This document shows positions 1,452 to 10,546 of a DNA stretch of 40,808 nt, one piece after another. Source of the DNA: a virus (Duplodnaviria; Heunggongvirae; Uroviricota; Caudoviricetes). The position numbers were made by a program, and so were the translations under genes. The stretch lies in the IMG/VR virus record IMGVR_UViG_2778261545_000004; one strand, 5' to 3'. Position 1 is the first letter of the stretch, and each line of letters begins with the position of its first letter. The notes under the pieces were generated by a model, which saw only the letters and a list, made by a program, of their open reading frames with translations, searched no databases and was not told the DNA's origin.

Positions 1452-2579
1452 TCAAACCTTGATTTTTGCCCATTCCTTACCACGATCATCATGGTATTTA
1501 GCTGTCTGGTTAGGCGATTTATGTCCCAGAAGTTTTTGGGTGTCGACGCCCTGAGCTTCGTAAAGTCGCTCAGATAAAGATCTTTGTTCATGGAATGTGG
1601 CGGGCGAACCTTCACCCCAGTCAATGCCTGCTAAATCCCTCGCTTTACTGAAATTCATCGTCAATGTATTGGCTTTTACTTGCGCGCCACGTTCAGCCTG
1701 TGAAGTAGTACGAAAAAAATGTACAAGGTATGGGCTGACTGCATAGTCACGGCAGCGGGCTACTACATCGCGTAAACTCCAGTTAATTGCATTGAGGCGA
1801 AGGGAAAGCGGGATGGCGATTTTGCTCCCGGTTTTTTCTTGGATGACGTGAAGATGATCATCCCAAATATCGCTAAATTTCATACGTGAGATATCACCTA
1901 ACCGTTGGCCGGTAACCAGTGCTAACAGCATGGCATTCCCCATATAACGATGGCGGGCATCTGCGATATCAAAGATTTTTTGCCATTCTTCAAGACTTAA
2001 CCGTTGTCGGGTAATTTTTCTTCTGGGTTGTTTGGTTGCCAGTGCTGGATTATAGCCCGGAGGGACTTCCCCATAGTGTTGTGCCTCCTTGAATACATCA
2101 ATTAGAACGGAGCGGACTACTTGCGCCATCCTCGGTTGCCCGGCAGTGATATACTCGTCAAGTAATTGTGCTATATCCCTTACATCAACTGATGAAATTA
2201 ATTTCATTCCTGCTCGTTCCCTGAGCAAGGATACTGGTTTGGCTTTCTGTTTATAGGTGTTTAGCTTTATATCGCCACTTTCCAGTCTGTCATCCTGGAT
2301 TGCTTGATAGCGATCTAACCAGGTTGACGTTGTGATTGCTTTTCCTTTGCTGGTTGCGATCCTGTCACTGATAGCCAGAATCTGCCGGGTTCTTTGCTCA
2401 GCCAGGCGTGAATTTGCCTCAGTGGCAATAGCAATGGCTTCAGCTTCGTTTGTGCCTAAAGAATGAAACTTCCCGGTCACTGGATGTTTATATCGCCAAT
2501 AGACTTTATTTACTTTTCTACTATAAAGCGGATACAAGTTCGGGACTGAAACATTATTTTTACGTGGTCTGGCTGCCAT
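1452..2579 (-). CDS. int: Tyrosine-type phage integrase
   Basis: 375 aa; typical integrase N-terminal arm and C-terminal catalytic region; overlapped by xis at its 5' end. Confidence 0.9.
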   Translation of the reverse strand: MAARPRKNNVSVPNLYPLYSRKVNKVYWRYKHPVTGKFHSLGTNEAEAIAIATEANSRLAEQRTRQILAISDRIATSKGKAITTSTWLDRYQAIQDDRLESGDIKLNTYKQKAKPVSLLRERAGMKLISSVDVRDIAQLLDEYITAGQPRMAQVVRSVLIDVFKEAQHYGEVPPGYNPALATKQPRRKITRQRLSLEEWQKIFDIADARHRYMGNAMLLALVTGQRLGDISRMKFSDIWDDHLHVIQEKTGSKIAIPLSLRLNAINWSLRDVVARCRDYAVSPYLVHFFRTTSQAERGAQVKANTLTMNFSKARDLAGIDWGEGSPATFHEQRSLSERLYEAQGVDTQKLLGHKSPNQTAKYHDDRGKEWAKIKV

Positions 2580-2805
2580 TACTTAAAATCCTTTGTAGAA
2601 TAATAGAATCATTTTTCTTGATGACAGGAGTAATTAATTCCCCAACTAACTCTGCGTCCTCACGCACTCGCCATAGTCGACCTTGTTTCATTGCCGGTGG
2701 ACAAAATAAATTCTGCTTAGCATAACGACGCAATGTGGACACGCTTGGAGGATTACTTCTGTATTTTTCCGCAGCCCATTCCTCAAGTGTCAGCATTTGA
2801 AGCAT
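2560..2805 (-). CDS. xis: Excisionase
   Basis: Small basic protein (MLQMLTLEEWAAEKY...) overlapping the int start; start chosen at ATG 2805 with GAGG upstream (ORF track starts at 2820). Confidence 0.75.
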   Translation of the reverse strand: MLQMLTLEEWAAEKYRSNPPSVSTLRRYAKQNLFCPPAMKQGRLWRVREDAELVGELITPVIKKNDSIILQRILSNGSQTT

Positions 2806-2848
2806 TTTTGATAACCTCATTTCTTTTGCTACAAAACTATTTCACTAG

Positions 2849-3397
2849 TTAATTTCGCTGTCTGGATTGTTTATGCATCTTATGCAGCTCTTTAAAGCGT
2901 TCCATAAACATCCCGTAGGCATGGCCCGGTGCCAGTGGAATCACGTTGAACATCTCTGTTGCCGGGATGCCTTCCAGTACAGGCCAGAAAGAGCCATCAT
3001 CAAGCCCGAGATCGCGGCGTTCGGTTGCCAGCATGATGAGATCGGCATATTTCACGGGCGTACTCATAACCGGGGGTAACCCGTATTTCTCACGGATTAC
3101 GGCGTCTATTTTTTCTTCCATCTGTTTATAGTCAGGAAGAAGGCGTTTCAGTGGAGCGGGGATGTCCTGGCAATACACTTCTGTTGCATCATGCATTAAC
3201 GCTTCAAAAGCAAATTCCTGCGGTACCAGTTGGCTGCAAAGAACCGCATGTTGGGCGACGCTGTAGAAGTGTGAAAGATGTCCTGCAAAGCGACAGATAT
3301 TTGAAAGGGAAAACGCGATATCGTTAATAACGATATCGTCTTTATTTATCCTGTCATAATAAAAATGCTTCCCAGAAAAAGTTTTAATAAATGACAT
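2849..3397 (-). CDS. HD-domain phosphohydrolase (YfdR-like 5'-deoxynucleotidase)
   Basis: 182 aa from ATG 3397 (GGAG upstream); H..HD metal-binding signature (FAGHLSHF...HDATE); ORF-track N-terminal extension rejected. Confidence 0.7.
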   Translation of the reverse strand: MSFIKTFSGKHFYYDRINKDDIVINDIAFSLSNICRFAGHLSHFYSVAQHAVLCSQLVPQEFAFEALMHDATEVYCQDIPAPLKRLLPDYKQMEEKIDAVIREKYGLPPVMSTPVKYADLIMLATERRDLGLDDGSFWPVLEGIPATEMFNVIPLAPGHAYGMFMERFKELHKMHKQSRQRN

Positions 3398-3491: not shown

Positions 3492-3513
3492 AAATGCCCC
3501 CGCAGGGGCATTT
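3492..3513 (-). terminator. Stem-loop downstream of the YfdQ-like gene (AAATGCCCC-CGCA-GGGGCATTT)
   Basis: Perfect 9-bp inverted repeat read directly; weak U-tract, so a weak terminator or processing site. Confidence 0.3.
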
Positions 3514-3525
3514 GCAGTAATCAAA

Positions 3526-4350
3526 TCAGGCGGTGAAAGTACCAATAAAGGTTTCTACTTTGCTGTCTTTGAATTTCTCAACAAGCAGATCGCGAAATTC
3601 GTTAGCCATTTCTTCCTGCACCGCCTCCAGCTGAATAATGCGCAGAACAAGTACAGGACGATCGCCAGTGATAATGCTGAGGCGTAATTTAAAAGAACGT
3701 TCTTTCAGACCTTCAAACGGAACGCATTTAAATTCAAATGCCACTGGCATAATGTCTTTGGTCTTCGCTTCGACAGACTCCATCAGGGAGCGTTTGCCGC
3801 TGAAGTCATTGTCTTCAAAATCAGCAGTCTGGTTCGCTTCAATTGTGATTTTACGGATCGCCGCAGCCGCTTTGGTTGCCTGAATGGCGTCACCATTAGC
3901 ATCAAAGCCCACAAGGTTGTCGGCCCAGTCTTCAATCCATTCTGCCAGTGATTTCTGGGAGTTACGCTCGCCGTGAACAGACAACAGAGCAGAGAACGGT
4001 GCTGTCTTTTTCAGTTTGAGAGTGGCGGTGTTATCTGCGTGGCCTGGTTCATCAATAGTACCCAGGTTAAGCACACTGACGGCACGCATATTATCAGCAT
4101 CGATAAAGCAGCGGGTGCCTTCATCTGCAAGATCTTTAGAATAACGGGTAAAGTCATCAATGCTGGCAGTGGAAAGCGCACCACGGAAACGGAAGCGATT
4201 TAAATTAAATTTTTCCAGGTCATGAATGCGGAAATTCTCAGGCAATGCCACAGCATCGGCACCAATCTTACTGATAATTTCATTAACACCCTGAGCAGAA
4301 ATAAGGGCATGGATTTGATTAATTGCGGTTGCGTCTAAGTTCTGAGACAT
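3526..4350 (-). CDS. YfdQ-family prophage protein (function unknown)
   Basis: 274 aa; same length and gene order as the yfdP-yfdQ-yfdR block of E. coli prophage remnants (from memory, not searched). Confidence 0.6.
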
Positions 4351-4415
4351 AATAAGTCCTCACTATATAAAGATATTCAGTGATGAGATAAATAATCAGT
4401 TAATTAAAAACGATA

Positions 4416-4778
4416 TTAACGACCTGCTGCGCGGAGTTTTCCGTCAGGTTCACCGGCAAGAGTCAGTAACTGTCCCTGGTCTTCCTGCAGAATAGTCAGG
4501 CGACCACCGCGATTGACATACATCGGCGTTTCGGTGGTGTCTTCTTCGGAAATTTTCCCGCGGTTAGTCGGGCGAACATATGAGAGTTTGTGTTTGATTT
4601 TCACACGGTTCTCATCAAATGGTTCGATTTCCAGGTTGAGTGAGACCTTACCTTTGGTTTTCGTGTTCATCACACCGGAAGCGACTTCACTGAGAACTGC
4701 GCCGATTTTGGTTTCAAATACGCCGCCGTCCAGCTCCCCGATAAATGCCTGCACATCAGTACTGCGTTCGCTAGCCAT
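4416..4778 (-). CDS. YfdP-like small prophage protein
   Basis: 120 aa from ATG 4776-4778 with GAGGAG 7 nt upstream; the ORF-track extension to 5096 is rejected. Confidence 0.5.
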   Translation of the reverse strand: MASERSTDVQAFIGELDGGVFETKIGAVLSEVASGVMNTKTKGKVSLNLEIEPFDENRVKIKHKLSYVRPTNRGKISEEDTTETPMYVNRGGRLTILQEDQGQLLTLAGEPDGKLRAAGR

Positions 4779-4789
4779 TTTGCTGCTCC

Positions 4790-5110
4790 TCATCATATCG
4801 ACCCTGCAAGGCCGATTAGTTTCTCCACAAAACAGAGAAGAACACCTGCGGTGGCAGCCGCCCGGATGGATTGGGTTATGAGCCCGTCGTCCGGTGATGC
4901 TCTTCTCTGTTTTGTAAAAAGGACGGTACCAGCCGGAAGCAAGGGTACAAACTGGTACCGCCAGGACTACACACAGCATAAAGTTGTGGTGCCGGGTGCC
5001 TCCCGGTGCCTGGCGAAGGTTGCACACCAGGCGGGTGGGTATCCACAGAAGGTCGACTGTCAGCCTCAACCTTAACCCGCGTGCGCTGAGCCGCATTCAC
5101 CACAACGCTA
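4790..5110. other. GC-rich non-coding block with nested perfect inverted repeats (candidate structured RNA or DNA element)
   Basis: 14-bp perfect inverted repeat CAAAACAGAGAAGA / TCTTCTCTGTTTTG (4827-4840 and 4901-4914), 9-bp inverted repeat CGGTACCAG / CTGGTACCG (4924-4932 and 4952-4960); ORFs open in several frames but none protein-like. Confidence 0.3.
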
Positions 5111-5179
5111 AGGATTCTCTCTGGTTGAAAATACTTAGCTGTTATGTGCCTGCTTTTAGCCACATCAGGCGAGGTGGAC

Positions 5180-5231
5180 CTGGTTATTCCCCAACAACAA
5201 GGATTCGGTTAATCTGGTTATCCCCAACAAC
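5180..5231 (+). repeat. Direct repeat pair CTGGTTAT(T)CCCCAACAAC upstream of the 5247 moron
   Basis: Copies at 5180-5198 and 5214-5231, 34 bp apart, 15-65 nt upstream of the ATG. Confidence 0.6.
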
Positions 5232-5246
5232 GCAAAAGGAAAAGAA

Positions 5247-5681
5247 ATGTCCGGTAATATCTATACGCTGTACAAATCCCACTGTGAAAATGTTGGAAAG
5301 TATCGGGGCATTGAAATCAGTGGGGTAGTGTCATCAGTCGAAATAAGCAAAGTTGAATCAAGGGCAACATTACTTACTCTTTTGGACCTTGTCTTACATG
5401 AGCACCGGAAGAAATTCGGCACTCCCTATAATCAGTTGAATGGGAAAAAGGCTCTGGTTCACCTTATTCTGATGAAGCATCACTGGATGCCAAAACAGAT
5501 TAATGAGATGAAATTTGATGAACTTCTTCTTTCAATTCAGGATGAACTCACACTTGATAAAATAAGCGTAACCGCCCAGAAATTTTTAGATTATCGAGAC
5601 TGGAGATCACAAATTCATCACTTTGATGATTTTGACGAAAATGAATGGGATCCTAATTTGTCTGCACAATATCTAAAGTAA
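5247..5681 (+). CDS. Hypothetical protein, 144 aa (opposite-strand moron in the early-left region)
   Basis: AAGGAAAAG RBS, AT-rich, transcribed against the leftward early operon; no family recognised. Confidence 0.55.
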   Translation: MSGNIYTLYKSHCENVGKYRGIEISGVVSSVEISKVESRATLLTLLDLVLHEHRKKFGTPYNQLNGKKALVHLILMKHHWMPKQINEMKFDELLLSIQDELTLDKISVTAQKFLDYRDWRSQIHHFDDFDENEWDPNLSAQYLK

Positions 5682-5859
5682 CATCCTGTGATAAAACCGT
5701 GATTTCCTGATCCAGTTTTTTTAAGGAGTCTATTGTTTCCTGTCGATAAGACAGCACTTCACGAAGCTGGTTTATAGCTGCCAGCTTCTTTGTCATCCAC
5801 TCATAAATTTCCTCATCTGTGTAGCCAGGCGCGACGATTTTGGGTTCTGTTTTGTGCAT
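5653..5859 (-). CDS. Small hypothetical protein, first gene of the leftward early operon
   Basis: 68 aa from the ATG preceded by AGGAG with 7-nt spacer; convergent 29-nt overlap with the 5247-5681 gene. Confidence 0.4.
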   Translation of the reverse strand: MHKTEPKIVAPGYTDEEIYEWMTKKLAAINQLREVLSYRQETIDSLKKLDQEITVLSQDVTLDIVQTN

Positions 5860-5918
5860 TTCACATCTCCTCAAGTTATCAGTTACTTGTTGATGGGGAC
5901 CAGATTGTTAAAGAGCTA

Positions 5919-5945
5919 AGCGTCCTGTAGGGCGCTTTTTTGTTG
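5919..5945 (+). terminator. Rho-independent terminator-like hairpin with T6 tract
   Basis: AGCGTCC-TGTA-GGGCGCT followed by TTTTTTGTTG; more stable on plus strand (G-U pair). Confidence 0.4.
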
Positions 5946-6107
5946 CTAACGAATCATCCTGGACTTCATATGCCCCAGGCGGCTACTTCGTGGGCGTCCT
6001 GCCTGTTCGTTTTTGACATTTACTGACTGCTTACGACACATGCACCGTGTTGCAACCAGATTTTGTTGTAATCCTGTAGTTGGTCTGGAACAAAAGATAA
6101 AATTAAA

Positions 6108-6143
6108 TTGCGAGATATGCAAGTGATATTTGCGAGATATGCA
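6108..6143. promoter_or_regulatory. OL-like operators: two copies of TTGCGAGATATGCAA
   Basis: Identical 15-mers at 6108-6122 and 6129-6143, centres 21 bp apart, between the repressor 3' end and the leftward genes. Confidence 0.45.
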
Positions 6144-6152
6144 AATTTATAG

Positions 6153-6178
6153 GTAATAAAAAGCCACCTTTCGGTGGC
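6153..6178 (-). terminator. Rho-independent terminator downstream of the repressor gene
   Basis: On minus strand GCCACC-GAAA-GGTGGC followed by UUUUUAUU, immediately after the stop at 6199. Confidence 0.6.
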
Positions 6179-6198
6179 CGATGGATGGGATATTGAGG

Positions 6199-6891
6199 TT
6201 AATTATGTCTCTTAAGGGTTTGCGACTGACTGATTAAGACCTTTCCAAAGACCATGAATCGGTGTTCGTTTTCGCTAGTAATTCCCCATTCACGGTAAAT
6301 CTGGTTATCAGAAATCACCAGCAGTTTGTCAGGAATCATTTGAAGTCTTTTAACGTATATTTTGTCATCAAAACCAAAGACATATATACCATCACCATCA
6401 AACTGATTGATGCTGACATCAACGAAGATGAGATCTCCTGGCTCAATGGTTGGACACATACTGTCCCCACGAACGTTGATAACTTTGATGTGATTGGCTG
6501 GTCGTCCGCCGAACATTGATACAGCATTATCAGTTCTGTATTCGATGGCATGAATCACATCAATGACATCACCGCCCTGGATAAGGCCATTTCCCGCACT
6601 GGCACTGATATCCAGCATTTCAATACGGAACACATCCTTCACCTGCGCAACATCCTCATTATTACTGTTTTTATATACAGTATTACTTTTGTGGGCAGAG
6701 GTAAAGAGATCAGCAATATCAACACCTAAGCTCTTGGCAATATTACTCAGTGTTTGTTCGGTAAATTGTTTTTGCTTACCCGTTTCTAAGCGCGAGATGT
6801 TCGCCGCATCTACTCCTATCGCTTCAGCGAGATCGGCGATTTTCATGTTCTTCGCTTGGCGAAGTTGTCTGACTCGGTTTCCTATGTTCAT
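6199..6891 (-). CDS. CI-like prophage repressor (HTH domain plus S24 LexA-like autopeptidase domain)
   Basis: 230 aa; N-terminal HTH, C-terminal peptidase region with the conserved Ser (GDSMCP) and Lys (VKRL); divergent from a Cro-like gene. Confidence 0.9.
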   Translation of the reverse strand: MNIGNRVRQLRQAKNMKIADLAEAIGVDAANISRLETGKQKQFTEQTLSNIAKSLGVDIADLFTSAHKSNTVYKNSNNEDVAQVKDVFRIEMLDISASAGNGLIQGGDVIDVIHAIEYRTDNAVSMFGGRPANHIKVINVRGDSMCPTIEPGDLIFVDVSINQFDGDGIYVFGFDDKIYVKRLQMIPDKLLVISDNQIYREWGITSENEHRFMVFGKVLISQSQTLKRHN

Positions 6892-6988: not shown

Positions 6989-7249
6989 ATGCAATCACCA
7001 TTACGAAATGTGCGTAAGGCGCATGGTTTCACTTTGCAGCATGTTGCTGCGGGTGTTCAAATCAATCCAGCGACGTTGAGTCGTATTGAGAGGCTGGAGC
7101 AGATTCCATCTATCGAGCTTGCAGAACGTTTAGCCAATTTTTTTAAGGGTGAAGTCAGCGAAATGCAGATTCTTTATCCGGCACGTTTTCAATCTAGCCA
7201 AAACCAGAATGGGTTTAAACCACAGGAACAGGAGGTGAACCGTGGGTAA
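6989..7249 (+). CDS. Cro-like HTH transcriptional regulator
   Basis: 86 aa, HTH (GFTLQHVAAGVQINPATLSRIER), divergent from the repressor; GGAGG upstream. Confidence 0.8.
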   Translation: MQSPLRNVRKAHGFTLQHVAAGVQINPATLSRIERLEQIPSIELAERLANFFKGEVSEMQILYPARFQSSQNQNGFKPQEQEVNRG

Positions 7250-7793
7250 GCATCACTGGAAAGTAGAAAAACAGCCTGAGTGGTACGTGAAAGCTGTCAG
7301 AAAAACTATCGCAAAGTTGCCGGGTGGTTACGCTGAAGCAGCTGACTGGCTGGATGTAACAGAGAACGCATTATTTAACCGCCTTCGTGCCGATGGCGAT
7401 CAGATTTTCCCGCTGGGATGGGCAATGGTTTTGCAACGTGCTGGTGGAACTCACTTCATTGCTGACGCTGTGGCGCAGTCTGCAAATGGCGTCTTTGTGT
7501 CTCTTCCTGATGTCGAGGATGTGGACAACGCCGATATCAACCAACGCCTGCTGGAGGTCATTGAACAGATCGGCAGTTATTCAAAACAGATTCGTTCAGC
7601 AATTGAAGACGGTGTAGTGGAACCGCATGAGAAGACAGCAATTAACGACGAGCTGTACCTCTCAATTTCGAAGCTGCAGGAGCATGCAGCACTGGTCTAC
7701 AAAATCTTTTGCGTTTCAGAAAGTAGTGACGCCCGCGAGTGTGCAGCTCCGGGCGCCGTGGCGTGTCGTGACTGTGGAGAAACTAACGCATGA
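7242..7793 (+). CDS. Early regulatory protein (CII-like / YmfL-like)
   Basis: 183 aa, GTG start with AGGAGGTGA upstream, overlaps cro stop; position immediately after cro. Confidence 0.55.
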
Positions 7794-8128
7794 ACAGTTT
7801 AACAACACACTACCGTCGCTCGCAACTGATTGCGCTTCCTGTACCGGGTGGAAAAGCGAAGGTGGAGTATTGCTATGCAGTAAATGTACCAGGTGACAGG
7901 GAAATTGTAACCCACAGCTTTGCTGAGTGGGCTGTGGGTGATTTCAACCGGCAGAAGGAGACAGTCCTTTGCGACAAGTTAACCGCTGGTTCAAAGATCA
8001 CTACGGAGTGCCCGTCAGAGTCATTCGTTGGGAGCCGGAAACACAACGAGTTATCTACCTCCGCGAAGGCTATGAGCATGAGTGCTTCAGCCCGCTCGAA
8101 CAGTTTCGTCGTAAATTCAGGGAAATAG
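7790..8128 (+). CDS. Hypothetical ORF (frame uncertain; see finding on frame switch)
   Basis: ATGA stop-start overlap with the upstream gene; N-terminal half looks protein-like, C-terminal half is Ser/Thr-rich and looks out of frame. Confidence 0.3.
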
Positions 8129-8148
8129 AGGTCGGTCATGAGCACTAA
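7969..8148 (+). CDS. Alternative small ORF in the neighbouring frame (TTG start), 59 aa
   Basis: AAGGAG 9 nt upstream of TTG; translation [32 protein letters not shown]... is protein-like; below the ORF-track length cutoff. Confidence 0.3.
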
Positions 8149-9079
8149 ATTAACCGGCTATGTATGGGATGGTTGCGCTGCATCAGGCATGAAATTATCC
8201 AGCGTGGCAATTATGGCCCGCCTGGCTGATTTCAGTAATGACGAAGGTGTGTGTTGGCCATCAATTGAAACCATTGCCCGTCAGATTGGCGCGGGGATGA
8301 GTACCGTCAGGACGGCTATCGCACGGCTGGAAGCAGAAGGCTGGTTAACGCGTAAGGCGCGTCGCCAGGGTAACCGCAATGCGTCGAATGTTTATCAGCT
8401 TAACGTTGCGAAGCTTCAGGCAGCGGCATTTTCTCAACTGTCAGATTCTGACCCGTCAAAATCTGACGCATCAAAATCTGACCCGTCAAAATTTGATGCG
8501 TCGAAATCTGGCAAAAAAGCGGGTTTTCACCCGTCAGAATCTGGCGGGGATCCGTCAGTAAAATCAAAACATGATCCGTCAGATAAAAAACCTTCTCGTC
8601 CGGACGCTTCGCAACCGGACACGCAGACGGATGAACAGGATTTTTTAACTCGCCATCCTGATGCGGTTGTATTCAGCCCTAAAAAGCGCCATTGGGGAAC
8701 GCAGGATGATTTGACCTGCGCACAGTGGCTCTGGAAAAAAATCATCGCCCTGTACGAGCAAGCCGCCGAATGTGACGGCGAGGTGGTTCGTCCCAAAGAA
8801 CCGAACTGGACAGCCTGGGCAAACGAAATTCGCCTGATGTGTGTGCAGGATGGTCGTACTCACAAACAAATCTGCGAGATGTACAGCCGCGTCAGCCGCG
8901 ATCCGTTCTGGTGCCGTAACGTGCTCAGCCCGTCGAAGTTGCGGGAAAAATGGGATGAGCTTTCCCTGCGCTTATCACCGTCCGTCAGCACGTACACCGA
9001 AAAACGCGAAGACCCGTACTTCAAATCCAGTTACGACAACGTGGACTACAGCCAGATCCCGGCAGGATTCAGGGGGTGA
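8138..9079 (+). CDS. Replication initiator protein (O-like: N-terminal HTH domain, low-complexity linker, C-terminal domain)
   Basis: 313 aa; GAGG RBS; iteron array lies inside the linker-coding region as in lambda O. Confidence 0.7.
   Translation: MSTKLTGYVWDGCAASGMKLSSVAIMARLADFSNDEGVCWPSIETIARQIGAGMSTVRTAIARLEAEGWLTRKARRQGNRNASNVYQLNVAKLQAAAFSQLSDSDPSKSDASKSDPSKFDASKSGKKAGFHPSESGGDPSVKSKHDPSDKKPSRPDASQPDTQTDEQDFLTRHPDAVVFSPKKRHWGTQDDLTCAQWLWKKIIALYEQAAECDGEVVRPKEPNWTAWANEIRLMCVQDGRTHKQICEMYSRVSRDPFWCRNVLSPSKLREKWDELSLRLSPSVSTYTEKREDPYFKSSYDNVDYSQIPAGFRG
8447..8590 (+). repeat. Iteron array (probable replication origin) inside the O-like gene
   Basis: At least five copies of CCGTCA(A/G)(A/T)A(A/T)-type repeats, including two longer TCTGACCCGTCAAAAT units. 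Confidence 0.5.
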
Positions 9080-9570: not shown

Positions 9571-10223
9571 TGAGTAATAAATATTGCCAGGCGCTGGTGG
9601 AACTGCGGAACAAACCAGCCCATGAACTGAAGGAAGTGGGCGATCAGTGGCGCACGCCGGACAACATTTTCTGGGGAATTAACACCCTGTTTGGCCCGTT
9701 TGTTCTGGATCTGTTTACTGACGGTGATAACGCCAAATGTGCCGCGTATTACACGGCGGAAGATAACGCGCTGGCGCATGACTGGTCAGAACGTCTTGCG
9801 GAGCTTAAAGGTGCTGCCTTTGGTAATCCCCCATACAGCCGCGCCAGTCAGCATGAGGGACAATACATCACCGGCATGCGTTACATCATGAAACATGCCA
9901 GTGCCATGCGTGATAAGGGCGGGCGCTATGTTTTCCTGATCAAAGCTGCCACCAGCGAAGTGTGGTGGCCGGAAGATGCGGACCATATTGCTTTTATTCG
10001 CGGGCGTATTGGTTTTGAACTGCCTGCCTGGTTTATCCCGAAGGATGAGAAGCAGGTGCCGACAGGCGCTTTCTTCGCTGGTGCTATTGCTGTTTTCGAC
10101 AAGACCTGGAAGGGACCGGCAATCAGCTACATCGGGCGCGATGAACTTGAGGCATGTGGTGAAGCCTTTCTGGTGCAGGTTCGCCAGCAGGCGGAAAAAC
10201 TGGTCAGGGAGATGGCGGCATGA
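9570..10223 (+). CDS. Phage DNA N6-adenine methyltransferase (Dam-like), orphan
   Basis: NPPY catalytic motif (FGNPPYS); GGGGG RBS; start ATG 9570 overlaps the upstream stop; no cognate restriction gene adjacent. Confidence 0.8.
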   Translation: MSNKYCQALVELRNKPAHELKEVGDQWRTPDNIFWGINTLFGPFVLDLFTDGDNAKCAAYYTAEDNALAHDWSERLAELKGAAFGNPPYSRASQHEGQYITGMRYIMKHASAMRDKGGRYVFLIKAATSEVWWPEDADHIAFIRGRIGFELPAWFIPKDEKQVPTGAFFAGAIAVFDKTWKGPAISYIGRDELEACGEAFLVQVRQQAEKLVREMAA

Positions 10224-10546
10224 CGACGTTAACTCAATGCCAGCAGCAGGTGCTGGATATGCTGATTTCTTACCAGAAAGAGCGTGGCTTTCCGCCAACC
10301 AATCAGGAGGTGGCAACCATGCTGGGATACCGTTCAGTGAATGCAGCGGTAGAGCATCTTCGTGCACTGGAGAAAAAAGGCGTCATCACGATAAAGCGTG
10401 GCGTGGCCCGGGGGATAACGCTTCATACCGCGGTGAAGGACGACGACAGCGAGGCGGTCGGGATTATCCGCGCACTGCTTGCCAGTGAGGAAAACGCCAG
10501 GCTGCGTGCAGCCCACTGGTTACATGAGAGAGGCCTGAAAGTATGA
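10220..10546 (+). CDS. LexA N-terminal DNA-binding-domain homologue lacking the autopeptidase domain
   Basis: 108 aa; LTQCQQQVLDMLISYQKERGFPPTNQEVATMLGYRSVNAAVEHLRALEKKGVI closely matches the LexA winged-HTH; no S24 domain. Confidence 0.7.
   Translation: MTTLTQCQQQVLDMLISYQKERGFPPTNQEVATMLGYRSVNAAVEHLRALEKKGVITIKRGVARGITLHTAVKDDDSEAVGIIRALLASEENARLRAAHWLHERGLKV

Follow-up and report, generated by a model that had tools for sequence, protein, structure and literature searches.

The window, i.e. the whole stretch of 40,808 nucleotides that was analysed, is an e14/SfII-type lambdoid prophage of E. coli. Between the CII-like regulator gene ymfL and an O-like replication gene lies an open reading frame of 112 amino acids, which corresponds to ymfM. 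Its product is identical to the K-12 protein b1148 ('cell division inhibitor YmfM', SfiC) at 109 of 112 positions (97%), the flanking genes are the same, and the family phrog_1170 is matched over the full length (E=3.8e-70). The gene is annotated as ymfM in K-12, SfII and vB_EcoM-720R4. The features of the locus, in window coordinates, are the following:

7242-7793, plus strand: ymfL, CII-like regulator gene (NCBIfam NF041471 YmfL equivalog, E=4e-50; Pfam Phage_CP76; RefSeq annotation ymfL)
7627-7896, plus strand: ORF of 89 amino acids with CASC...CSKC, an out-of-frame reading of the end of ymfL and the start of ymfM (rejected as a gene)
7790-8128, plus strand: ymfM, 112 amino acids, homologue of K-12 b1148 (identity, phrog_1170, annotation)
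7790-7968, plus strand: N-terminal domain of ymfM, about 60 amino acids, protein-constrained (pN/pS; stand-alone homologues of 63-78 amino acids)
7873-8145, minus strand: antisense ORF of 90 amino acids, in the codon-complement frame of DUF4222 (rejected as a gene)
7955-7960, plus strand: putative Shine-Dalgarno AAGGAG of the DUF4222 gene, within ymfM codons (sequence; similar motif at the same place in relatives)
7969-8148, plus strand: DUF4222 gene, 59 amino acids, TTG start, RgdR-family small protein (Pfam PF13973, PGAP CDS WP_001250269.1, pN/pS, AlphaFold)
7969-8128, plus strand: ymfM tail, read in the +1 frame of DUF4222 (pN/pS 1.6, stop-free, predicted disordered)
8126-8128, plus strand: ymfM stop TAG, made of DUF4222 codon 53 (rare Ile ATA) and the next G
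8138-9079, plus strand: O-like replication initiator gene with an HTH_36 domain (Pfam; annotation in related records)

All the neighbouring junctions in the early operon overlap by 1 to 11 nt. The TGA stop of ymfL and the ATG of ymfM share the ATGA at 7790-7793, and the last 11 nt of the DUF4222 gene, whose TAA stop occupies 8146-8148, overlap the replication gene. The latter contains internal iteron-like repeats (15-nt units at 8441-8515). Since 7790 is 2 mod 3 and 7969 is 1 mod 3, the passage from the ymfM frame to the DUF4222 frame corresponds to a -1 shift. Promoter, terminator and Rfam scans detected nothing relevant. The early genes of e14-type prophages are repressed in lysogens.

Two of the listed ORFs were discarded. 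The first-pass annotation had reported a third frame with a CxxC...CxxC motif; this motif is indeed present in the window (CASC...CSKC), but neither the motif nor the open frame is conserved in the type-A relatives. With at least one stop in every relative examined and no family match, the ORF 7627-7896 is considered spurious and due to chance. The antisense ORF of 90 amino acids is spurious as well: 3 of 41 relatives carry a stop, no family is matched, and its frame is trivially open because only TTA, CTA or TCA codons could close it. Two phage records nevertheless list this antisense ORF as a CDS.

The alignment of the 112-117-amino-acid homologues reveals that residues 1-60 of YmfM are well conserved, the remainder being poorly conserved and rich in Ser and Thr. 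Together with the substitution analysis, it bears out the initial impression that this ORF is protein-like in its N-terminal half and Ser/Thr-rich in its C-terminal half. In the ymfM frame, pN/pS of the N-terminal half is 0.48 for type A (computed on a codon alignment, as this type carries a one-codon indel), 0.35 for type B and 0.43 for type C; in the other two frames it is at least 0.93 (types B and C). These ratios indicate that purifying selection acts on the N-terminal 60 codons, approximately, of ymfM. The domain also exists as a stand-alone gene in Entomohabitans (78 amino acids, without DUF4222) and in Providencia-type phages (69 amino acids), so that the tail is dispensable for it in other lineages. 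No Pfam or NCBIfam family was matched by the 112-amino-acid frame, nor any Pfam family by six variants of the N-terminal half, and these Pfam searches displayed no similarity with the known division inhibitors Kil, DicB, SulA and CbtA. All PHROG matches of the ymfM ORF and of its N-terminal half are labelled 'unknown function'. The AlphaFold model of the 112 residues has a pLDDT of 50, with residues 67-112 predicted to be disordered.

The DUF4222 gene in the second frame

The adjacent frame, from TTG 7969 to the stop at 8146-8148, had been described as protein-like. It encodes 59 amino acids that match Pfam PF13973 (DUF4222) end to end (E=8.6e-19, 67.3 bits for a cutoff of 27, profile positions 3-52 of 53). 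Judged from this match, the protein is a full-length member of DUF4222, a family whose domain is complete by itself with about 59-70 amino acids and in which 139 homologues are annotated as such. The PGAP CDS WP_001250269.1 sits at exactly 7969-8148 in an E. coli genome 100% identical to the window. The proposal of an unlisted TTG-initiated gene of 59 amino acids overlapping a spurious ORF is thus right for the gene and wrong for the ORF, which is ymfM. In the overlap, pN/pS of the DUF4222 frame is 0.20 for a saturated pS of 0.68 (235 diverged pairs), a pattern that identifies this frame as evolving like protein-coding sequence. The AlphaFold model is confident (pLDDT 81) and, with four strands and one helix, predicts a small beta-barrel. 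The DUF4222 proteins of the window and of K-12 are identical, all three differences between the two YmfM proteins being localized in the tail.

The motif AAGGAG noticed upstream of the TTG is present at 7955-7960, but the spacer is of 8 nt and not 9. At the same position, 8-11 nt upstream of the start, a similar motif (GGAGG, GAAGG or AGGGG) is found in nearly all of 37 related loci. Among 34 sequences the start codon is ATG in 29, GTG in three and TTG in two. A 6-bp hairpin at the DUF4222 start pairs the Shine-Dalgarno motif with the start region; the folding energy of the region is ordinary (z=-1.0, a region-wide score), and no complementary stretch was apparent by eye in the other loci.

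The 37 relatives were retrieved with DUF4222 as query, so that their choice did not depend on the ymfM frame. About 30 enterobacterial species, with 36 loci, share the two-frame layout. In 36 of the 36 loci intact at their 5' end, an upstream ORF, represented by at least four diverged N-terminal types, reads through DUF4222. Among the 35 complete loci, 34 have the end of this ORF between +157 and +163; in the remaining one (L040) the ymfM stop is missing and the frame continues for about 840 nt more, to +1000. Going upstream from its own start, the DUF4222 frame meets a stop after 0-117 nt. On the other side, the next gene begins at +169 in the ymfM frame without exception, at least four unrelated gene types occupying this place, and the two halves of the layout recombine independently (at least four N-terminal types, at least four downstream genes). 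According to the substitution analysis, constraint changes frame at about 7969, from the ymfM frame before to the DUF4222 frame after. This comparative evidence confirms that the frame switch is real, far beyond chance. Homologues aligning along the whole of 7790-8128 do exist (46-65% identity), an observation which the first-pass annotation had held to speak against any change of frame; such an alignment is nevertheless misleading, because the tail aligns only through the conserved DUF4222 DNA beneath it.

More distant DUF4222 groups were retrieved with single-protein queries, one of which (P0233) led to one locus only. Avoidance of stops in the +1 frame was also observed in two further diverged groups, G1 and G3; the G4 lineage tolerates a mid-gene stop in this frame, and openness is partial in the G2 loci. 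In the e14-type and Klebsiella/Enterobacter-type prophages, the +1 frame continues the upstream gene and constitutes the ymfM tail; Providencia-type loci have it as a separate ATGA-coupled ORF of 55 amino acids, about 50% hydrophobic.

The overlapping tail and the junction with the replication gene

Purifying selection at the amino-acid level on both overlapping frames was not found in the overlap, pN/pS of the ymfM frame being 1.6. Synonymous divergence is 0.68 in DUF4222 and 0.68 in the neighbouring gene (ratio 1.00), so that the tail imposes no detectable extra constraint. The tail frame contains no stop in any of 33 distinct sequences. By synonymous resampling, the probability for one sequence to be open ranges from 0.02 to 0.16 with a mean of 0.045 to 0.07, the codon usage being taken from the loci's own flanks as well as from the E. 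coli window, here and in the simulations of tail composition. For 8-10 sequences mutually diverged at a pS of at least 0.55-0.6, the joint probability is about 1e-9 or below.

The same avoidance is observed codon by codon. Val and Leu codons ending in TG are used at 0 of 103 positions where a stop would arise, versus 37 of 113 elsewhere, and xTA codons at 0 of 150 versus 15 of 155; stop-creating synonymous codons amount overall to 0 of 253 (the Fisher tests on these counts ignore phylogeny). In the ordinary genes of the window, used as control, the xTG frequencies are 48% versus 49%, with 0.047 +1-frame stops per codon. This last value is 0.048 in the O gene, 0.069 in the N-terminal half of ymfM and 0.000 in DUF4222; the gene rgdR, which has no ORF reading through it, contains seven stops in its +1 frame. 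Some site-specific skews in control genes also reach small p values, yet stop-creating codons are used there at 12-35% and not at 0%. Permutation of synonymous codons within the gene gives a probability of openness of 0.08-0.94, a conservative and uninformative null because the codon pool of DUF4222 is already purged of stop-creating codons.

In the e14-type group, Ser plus Thr make up 0.33 of the tail, compared with 0.23 for simulated open variants, and hydrophobic residues 0.21-0.23, compared with 0.33-0.34; these values lie near the 95th percentile, so that some weak selection on the product is conceivable. With the codon usage of the flanks this skew is weaker and still there in the e14-type group; it is absent or reversed in the other groups, and therefore we do not claim selection on the tail product. 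C-rich third codon positions, common to the neighbouring O gene, account for part of it. From these substitution and codon counts, the ymfM tail is best described as kept free of stops by selection and unconstrained in its amino-acid sequence.

The end of the tail is also fixed. DUF4222 codon 53 is ATA in 24 of 34 sequences, TTA in eight and CTA in one, i.e. a rare xTA codon in 33 of 34, across the replacement of Ile by Leu. The resulting TAG at 8126-8128 is followed by a spacer of 9 nt containing GAGG, then by the ATG of the replication gene at 8138, in the ymfM frame. An upstream stop conserved a few nt before a downstream start is the arrangement expected of a coupled junction, and the ymfM/O-like junction fits it as far as geometry can tell. 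The DUF4222 stop overlaps the O start too, so DUF4222 alone could provide coupling.

Alternative explanations

Two alternatives concern the status of the tail. It may be a functional part of YmfM, a disordered Ser/Thr-rich extension (linker, degron or interaction region) selected on composition. The open frame, the predicted disorder of residues 67-112 and the e14-type composition relative to the simulations would agree with this, but the equality of synonymous divergence between DUF4222 and its neighbour would not, nor would the existence of the N-terminal domain without a tail elsewhere. In addition, the skew partly follows the C-rich third positions shared with the O gene, and the separate, half-hydrophobic ORF of the Providencia-type loci means that no consistent property of the product is conserved. 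We regard a functional tail as improbable. Still less credit is due to the view that DUF4222 is the only gene, the 112-amino-acid ORF, or in any case the part of it beyond 7969, being an untranslated chance ORF. PGAP annotates DUF4222 alone and leaves 7794-7968 empty, the tail has no family match and a pN/pS of 1.6, and the within-gene permutation taken at face value makes openness unremarkable. This null is however conservative, for the reason given above, and in the N-terminal half purifying selection is confined to the ymfM frame; the same half is annotated as a stand-alone gene elsewhere. Stop-creating codons at 0 of 253, against 12-48% in control genes, and the rare xTA kept in 33 of 34 sequences to form the ymfM stop are equally difficult to reconcile with a chance ORF, as is the filamentation provoked by expression of the ymfM ORF (Ansari et al. 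2020, bioRxiv 10.1101/2020.11.19.390815).

The two other alternatives would join both halves into one product. A programmed -1 ribosomal frameshift near 7942-7990 would fuse the N-terminal domain to DUF4222 in a protein of about 115-120 amino acids. Programmed -1 frameshift fusions are exemplified by lambda G/GT and dnaX. The relation between the frames is -1 as required, and a few database proteins (102-152 amino acids) carry the N-terminal half followed by DUF4222 in one ORF; these fusions change frame at differing positions and are each represented by 1-14 sequences, as would be expected of errors or sporadic indels. Moreover, a search of 35 loci for an X XXY YYZ heptamer in the ymfM frame, up to 60 nt away from the DUF4222 start, was negative in 33. 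In some loci a stop closes the DUF4222 frame as little as 0, 3 or 15 nt before this start; the gene possesses its own conserved Shine-Dalgarno motif and start codon, and folding of the local RNA is ordinary (z=-1.0). A frameshift is accordingly very unlikely. As for the single gene of about 115 amino acids broken by a 1-nt indel, which the first-pass annotation had envisaged and which would be a pseudogene or a sequencing error in the window, two half-length protein-like readings in adjacent frames do suggest it at first sight. The 36 loci from about 30 species, the own Shine-Dalgarno motif and start of DUF4222 and the upstream closure of its frame refute it. The identical sequence is present in independent complete genomes, and of 5426 complete E. 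coli genomes 2647 contain the region. The two-frame layout persists between genera whose synonymous divergence is saturated, its halves recombine independently (at least four N-terminal types, at least four downstream genes), and DUF4222 is a complete stand-alone family. The probability of a broken gene is practically nil.

Proposed model and relation to known systems

The alignments establish coding constraint in both frames, the avoidance of stops, the fixed ymfM stop, the geometry of the junctions and their conservation across species. On this basis both the ymfM and the DUF4222 frames appear to be translated, and the explanation that we consider probable is that of two overlapping translated genes with a tail that is open but free in sequence, the purpose of the open frame being, as we infer, a ribosome relay. 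Translation of ymfM would begin at the ATGA overlap with ymfL and yield the conserved domain of about 60 amino acids; DUF4222 would be initiated from its own Shine-Dalgarno motif and TTG inside ymfM. Ribosomes translating ymfM would pass the end of the conserved domain and read through 53 codons of DUF4222 in the +1 frame, which would produce a tail rich in Ser and Thr, probably disordered and not under selection for its sequence, before terminating at TAG 8126-8128, 9 nt before the in-frame ATG of the O-like gene. Selection would act on the openness of the frame and the position of the stop and not on the peptide. The geometry suggests a relay that would couple translation of the early-right operon (cro, ymfL, ymfM, O) across the embedded gene and that might also control the initiation of DUF4222. 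With much less assurance, the +1 frame over DUF4222 could be regarded as a 'sequence-free' overlapping frame translatable in three diverged prophage groups, where ribosome passage is what is selected, either as a relay to the replication initiator or as a throttle on DUF4222 initiation.

The closest known system is YmfM/SfiC of the K-12 prophage e14, which is the same gene with the same neighbours (ymfK-like repressor, cro-like gene, ymfL and O-like gene). Expression of the ymfM ORF from pBAD24 blocked Z-ring formation and caused filamentation, and YmfM is treated in the literature as a single protein of 112 amino acids (Ansari et al. 2020, bioRxiv 10.1101/2020.11.19.390815). In our analysis only the first 60 residues or so behave as a protein, whereas the rest is an out-of-frame reading of an intact DUF4222 gene. 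The cloned ORF, if its ends are those implied by the statement that 'the open reading frame was cloned', contains the Shine-Dalgarno motif, the start and 53 of the 59 codons of DUF4222, that is, the whole Pfam domain, and to judge by the coordinates the greater part of both genes would be lost in a ymfM deletion. The ymfM studies consulted relied on overexpression of the complete ORF, on deletion mutants or on library clones spanning the whole region, each of which affects both genes, and published ymfM work therefore cannot tell which protein blocks division. As a corollary, the division inhibition by SfiC may belong to the N-terminal domain alone or, less likely, to the DUF4222 protein, neither of which is the 112-amino-acid YmfM as such.

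The DUF4222 protein has a relative in RgdR (ECs1581), the one family member with a known function, encoded by prophage Sp7 / OI-51 of EHEC O157:H7 and reported to activate LEE1, repress motility and bind DNA non-specifically (Flockhart et al. 2012, PMC3378721; review PMC10877973). RgdR likewise matches PF13973 (E=2e-23) and is 41% identical to the window protein over 49 amino acids (E=3e-11). Both are small and prophage-encoded, and both genes are directly upstream of a replication gene that they overlap, a primase for RgdR and the O-like initiator in the window. RgdR differs by its 99 amino acids, with extra N- and C-terminal residues, and by its RGD motif, replaced by HYG at the aligned positions of the window protein; it lies within a P4-like element where no ORF reads through it, and the likeness of the two proteins rests on sequence. 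By analogy, the DUF4222 protein might act as a small regulatory or DNA-binding cofactor.

In lambda Rz/Rz1, one gene has its own start inside another in a different frame, both are translated from one mRNA, and both products are sequence-constrained, interacting proteins. DUF4222 resembles the inner gene of this pair by its own start and Shine-Dalgarno motif inside ymfM in another frame. Contrary to Rz/Rz1, the overlapped part of ymfM displays no amino-acid constraint, only stop avoidance and a fixed stop, and the inner gene extends 20 nt past the outer one. Termination-reinitiation coupling is known from tightly packed operons with ATGA or short-spacer junctions, which the overlaps of 1 to 11 nt at every early-operon junction and the ymfM stop placed 9 nt before the replication ATG recall; unlike in these operons, the proposed coupling ORF must cross a whole embedded gene in another frame.

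The RefSeq annotation of K-12 MG1655, the best annotated of bacterial genomes, does not include this intact and conserved RgdR-family gene inside ymfM/ymfN. Conversely, the 30 best-matching PGAP-annotated E. coli genomes among the matches listed are all annotated, under the match, with DUF4222, ymfL and the O-like gene, and none of the 30 with ymfM (sfiC). The overlap bears on the reading of the ymfM experiments, SfiC being an activity 40 years old. The locus offers a clear natural case of an overlapping frame selected for its openness and the position of its stop and not for its sequence, a kind of frame missed by overlap detectors based on dN/dS or on synonymous-site conservation and mis-resolved by gene callers based on ORF length. 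Finally, at least two kinds of mobile elements have a gene of the DUF4222/RgdR type immediately preceding a replication gene, which hints at a role at the onset of replication.

Two overlapping forward genes and their annotation

By its sequence the locus is part of an e14/SfII/SfIV-type prophage; several complete E. coli chromosomes match it at 100% identity, and of 5426 complete E. coli genomes 2647 carry similar sequence. The 112-aa ORF is identical to K-12 b1148 ("cell division inhibitor YmfM") at 109 of 112 residues and is on that basis ymfM. The 59-aa ORF has a match to Pfam DUF4222 that spans the entire domain (E=8.6e-19). The first-pass annotation had described these ORFs accurately, save that the spacer from AAGGAG to TTG is 8 nt and not 9.

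Features of the locus (window positions, plus strand unless stated) and of related loci (own numbering)
7242-7793: CII-like gene (ymfL)
7627-7896: CASC...CSKC ORF, 89 aa
7790-8128: ymfM ORF, ATG start, 112 aa
7873-8145, minus strand: antisense ORF, 90 aa
7955-7960: SD of DUF4222, AAGGAG, 5' of the TTG start
7969-8148: DUF4222 ORF, TTG start, 59 aa, one frame back from ymfM
8126-8128: ymfM stop TAG, followed by the spacer AGGTCGGTC and the replication-gene ATG at 8138
8138-9079: O-like replication gene
L004 (MG1655) 3502-3681 = NC_000913.3 1204001-1204180: K-12 DUF4222 ORF, spanning the ymfM/ymfN junction
L042 and L044, 1709-1996, minus strand: annotated antisense CDS, equivalent to window 7873-8145 (minus)
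L128-L147, about 1507-1675 of each: +1-frame ORF of group G3, about 55 aa, inside the DUF4222 gene
L171 (E. coli O157:H7 Sakai) 4305-4604: rgdR (ECs_1581), overlapping the DNA primase gene (4601-6733) of a P4-like element by 4 nt

Only the 112-aa ORF is called in K-12 RefSeq, phage SfII and phage vB_EcoM-720R4. The K-12 copy of DUF4222 is intact and encodes a protein identical to that of the window, without a RefSeq CDS. The sole call by PGAP is the 59-aa ORF, with nothing annotated over 7794-7968; these 175 nt (1013493-1013667 of NZ_CP104516.1, a 100% identical genome) correspond to the N-terminal half of ymfM (sfiC), which is conserved, and they lie inside an operon where every other junction overlaps. 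ymfM is absent from the features under the match in the 30 best-matching genomes listed. In Klebsiella phage ST101-KPC2phi6.3 and Escherichia phage vB_EcoS-733R5 neither forward gene is called and the antisense ORF is annotated as CDS, giving the locus a third annotation, and a wrong one. This ORF is trivially open because it lies in the codon-complement frame of DUF4222, where only TTA, CTA or TCA codons could close it.

Inside the O-like gene, a tandem array of five to six 15-nt units (TCAAAATCTGACCCG-like; 8441-8515 and 8519-8548) encodes a SDPSKSDASKSDPSKFDASKS stretch and fits the expectation for lambdoid origin iterons; an Rfam miRNA match on these repeats is spurious. Further downstream, among replication, Dam and RusA genes, a 108-aa ORF (10220-10546) is called "LexA family protein" in RefSeq and is small for a LexA-type repressor.

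Constraint on the two frames

Homologues of the 112-aa ORF are 112-117 aa long and extend down to 46% identity; their first half is well conserved, their second half poorly conserved and Ser/Thr-rich. The DUF4222 proteins display strong conservation over their whole length. Substitution rates were obtained from 37 loci, one genome per species, fetched with the DUF4222 alignment to avoid ascertainment by the ymfM frame. DUF4222 codons 2-52 show a pS of 0.68 and a pN/pS of 0.20 (235 diverged pairs), the ymfM-frame reading of the same DNA a pN/pS of 1.6, and the adjacent O gene a pS of 0.68 and a pN/pS of 0.12. The ratio of synonymous rates between DUF4222 and the O gene is 1.00, that is, not depressed, and the ymfM tail (7969-8128) is therefore without constraint at the amino-acid level. 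All three differences between the window and K-12 YmfM fall in this tail and are silent in DUF4222. Upstream of 7969, the pN/pS of the ymfM frame is 0.35, 0.43 and 0.48 in the N-half types B, C and A, respectively; the other two frames show values of at least 0.93 in types B and C, and carry at least one stop in every sequence of the three types.

The tail nevertheless stays open under selection. The ymfM frame contains no stop over the 52-54 overlapped codons in 33 of 33 distinct sequences. When DUF4222 is resampled synonymously, the probability of openness is 0.02-0.13 under window codon usage; under the codon usage of each locus's own flanks it averages 0.07 and reaches 0.16 at most. Eight to ten sequences differ mutually at pS>=0.55-0.6, near saturation; treating them as roughly independent, an approximation as regards lineages, the joint probability is about 1e-9 or below. 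Within DUF4222, Val/Leu xTG codons are used at 37 of 113 harmless sites versus 0 of 103 where TGA would form, and xTA codons at 15 of 155 harmless versus 0 of 150 stop-creating sites (Fisher tests on these counts ignore phylogeny). The same contrast is not seen in ordinary window genes (48% versus 49%). Stops per codon in the +1 frame are 0.047 in ordinary window genes, 0.048 in the O gene, 0.069 in the N-half and 0.000 in DUF4222, and rgdR, a DUF4222 gene without a read-through ORF, contains seven +1-frame stops in all.

The first-pass annotation had offered two readings, a 1-nt indel in a single gene or an unlisted TTG-initiated gene over a spurious ORF. The TTG gene is real, given its Pfam match, its PGAP call and the constraint in its own frame, and the ORF that it overlaps is not spurious, given the constraint on the N-half and the stop-free tail. 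The indel is rejected, as the same two-frame layout is found in 36 of 36 loci with an intact 5' end, an upstream ORF in the +1 frame reading through DUF4222 each time. The upstream halves form at least four diverged types (grouped partly by eye, and joined by weak PHROG cross-matches) and the downstream replication genes at least four unrelated types, so that the parts are exchanged as modules within a constant layout. A programmed frameshift is likewise rejected: DUF4222 has an SD of its own and a start codon (ATG in 29, GTG in 3 and TTG in 2 of 34), both conserved, a stop closes its frame 0-117 nt before the start, and a -1 slippery heptamer is missing from 33 of 35 loci. Database "fusion" proteins and 63-aa forms are rare and switch frame at scattered positions. 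One cluster of ymfM fragments, P0044 (68 aa, 40 member sequences), ends in LSLIHI, which we take to be the translation expected of the Nextera adapter CTGTCTCTTATACACATC; the ending indicates that adapter sequence contaminated assembled public reads, and that the fragment is no natural variant.

In type B loci (e.g. L010, L027), the DUF4222 SD (GGAGGG or GGAAGG, at -18 to -9 from the start) is formed by upstream-gene codons for Arg-Arg or Arg-Lys, with the rare AGG (CGG AGG). This suggests that codon choice in the type B N-half gene may be selected to preserve an internal ribosome-binding site.

The layout in the wider DUF4222 family

DUF4222 is represented by only 69 clusters at E<=0.001 among 1.84 billion representative proteins. 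More distant members were used to fetch further loci, which form several groups. Group G1 shows the read-through layout again (32 of 33 open, against a probability of about 0.13). In G3 (Providencia type), the homologue of the N-half stands as a gene by itself (about 69 aa, so annotated in phage PSTCR8lys), with its stop 9-11 nt into DUF4222. The +1 frame is open in 18 of 18 distinct G3 sequences (resampling probability about 0.02), as an ORF of about 55 aa whose ATG overlaps the stop of the N-half gene (ATGA). Its first half is hydrophobic (MKxxIISIAFIWISAVFVFVSYVM...), and it has no PHROG match. G4 has a mid-gene +1-frame stop forced by a Met-Ile pair, and G2 has no N-half neighbour and a +1 frame only partly open. 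In an Entomohabitans prophage without DUF4222, a 78-aa N-half gene directly precedes O. From these stand-alone genes (G3, Entomohabitans), the N-terminal domain is autonomous and the tail dispensable for it. Translation in the +1 frame across DUF4222 thus apparently recurs, fused or separate. The properties of the peptide vary widely, from Ser/Thr-rich in the e14 type to about 50% hydrophobic in G3, which argues that ribosome passage counts and not the product.

Conserved stop, a proposed ribosome relay and the products

DUF4222 codon 53 encodes Ile or Leu, and 33 of 34 sequences use a rare xTA for it (ATA 24, TTA 8, CTA 1); this xTA and the next base form the ymfM stop. The replication-gene ATG lies 9 nt 3' of that stop, in the ymfM frame, whichever the gene type. 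As the stop is of consequence only to ribosomes that reach it in this frame, its conservation is independent evidence that ribosomes do so. L040 (Citrobacter braakii ATCC 51113) is the sole locus without it, the frame continuing about 840 nt further, to +1000. In this locus (about 1850-3000) the ymfM-frame ORF runs about 380 codons further, apparently merging with the frame of the downstream gene, and the C-terminus of DUF4222 is divergent.

Junctions in the early-right operon overlap: cro-like/ymfL by 8 nt, ymfL/ymfM as ATGA, DUF4222/O by 11 nt and O/next gene by 4 nt. From this geometry we infer that the ymfM frame could act as a relay, carrying ribosomes across the embedded DUF4222 to terminate beside the replication-gene start; the same traffic may in addition affect initiation of DUF4222 at its internal start. 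Against the need for such a relay, the stop of DUF4222 itself likewise overlaps the start of O.

RgdR (ECs1581, EHEC), the only characterised DUF4222 member found, is confirmed as belonging to the family and is 41% identical to the window's protein. This small regulator, encoded by a prophage, activates LEE1, represses motility and shows non-specific DNA binding (PMC3378721; PMC10877973). Like the window's DUF4222 gene, rgdR lies directly upstream of a replication gene, there a primase and here O, a placement of DUF4222 genes thus seen in two unrelated kinds of mobile element. For the window's protein, AlphaFold predicts with confidence a small beta-barrel plus helix, with only weak structure matches (KOW/Tudor/SH3-like).

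Expression of the cloned ymfM ORF blocks Z-ring assembly without need for SulA, SlmA or MinC, and ymfM deletion lowers SOS filamentation in a sulA background (Ansari et al. 2020, 10.1101/2020.11.19.390815). The published clone, with ends as inferred, includes the SD, the start and 53 of 59 codons of DUF4222; by coordinates, the deletion would remove most of both genes, and the entire region was present in the original library clones. Each ORF was already in some database, the ymfM phenotype is published, and the read-through findings belong to known themes, as variants of overlapping phage genes and of translational coupling. A link of ymfM with DUF4222 or with an overlap was not found in the searchable literature. 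What appears to be new is that "ymfM" is a conserved domain plus the out-of-frame read-through of an RgdR-family gene, together with evidence that selection keeps this read-through open and its stop in position without constraining its sequence, and the consequence of the overlap for the identity of SfiC, the reported e14 division inhibitor equated with K-12 YmfM.
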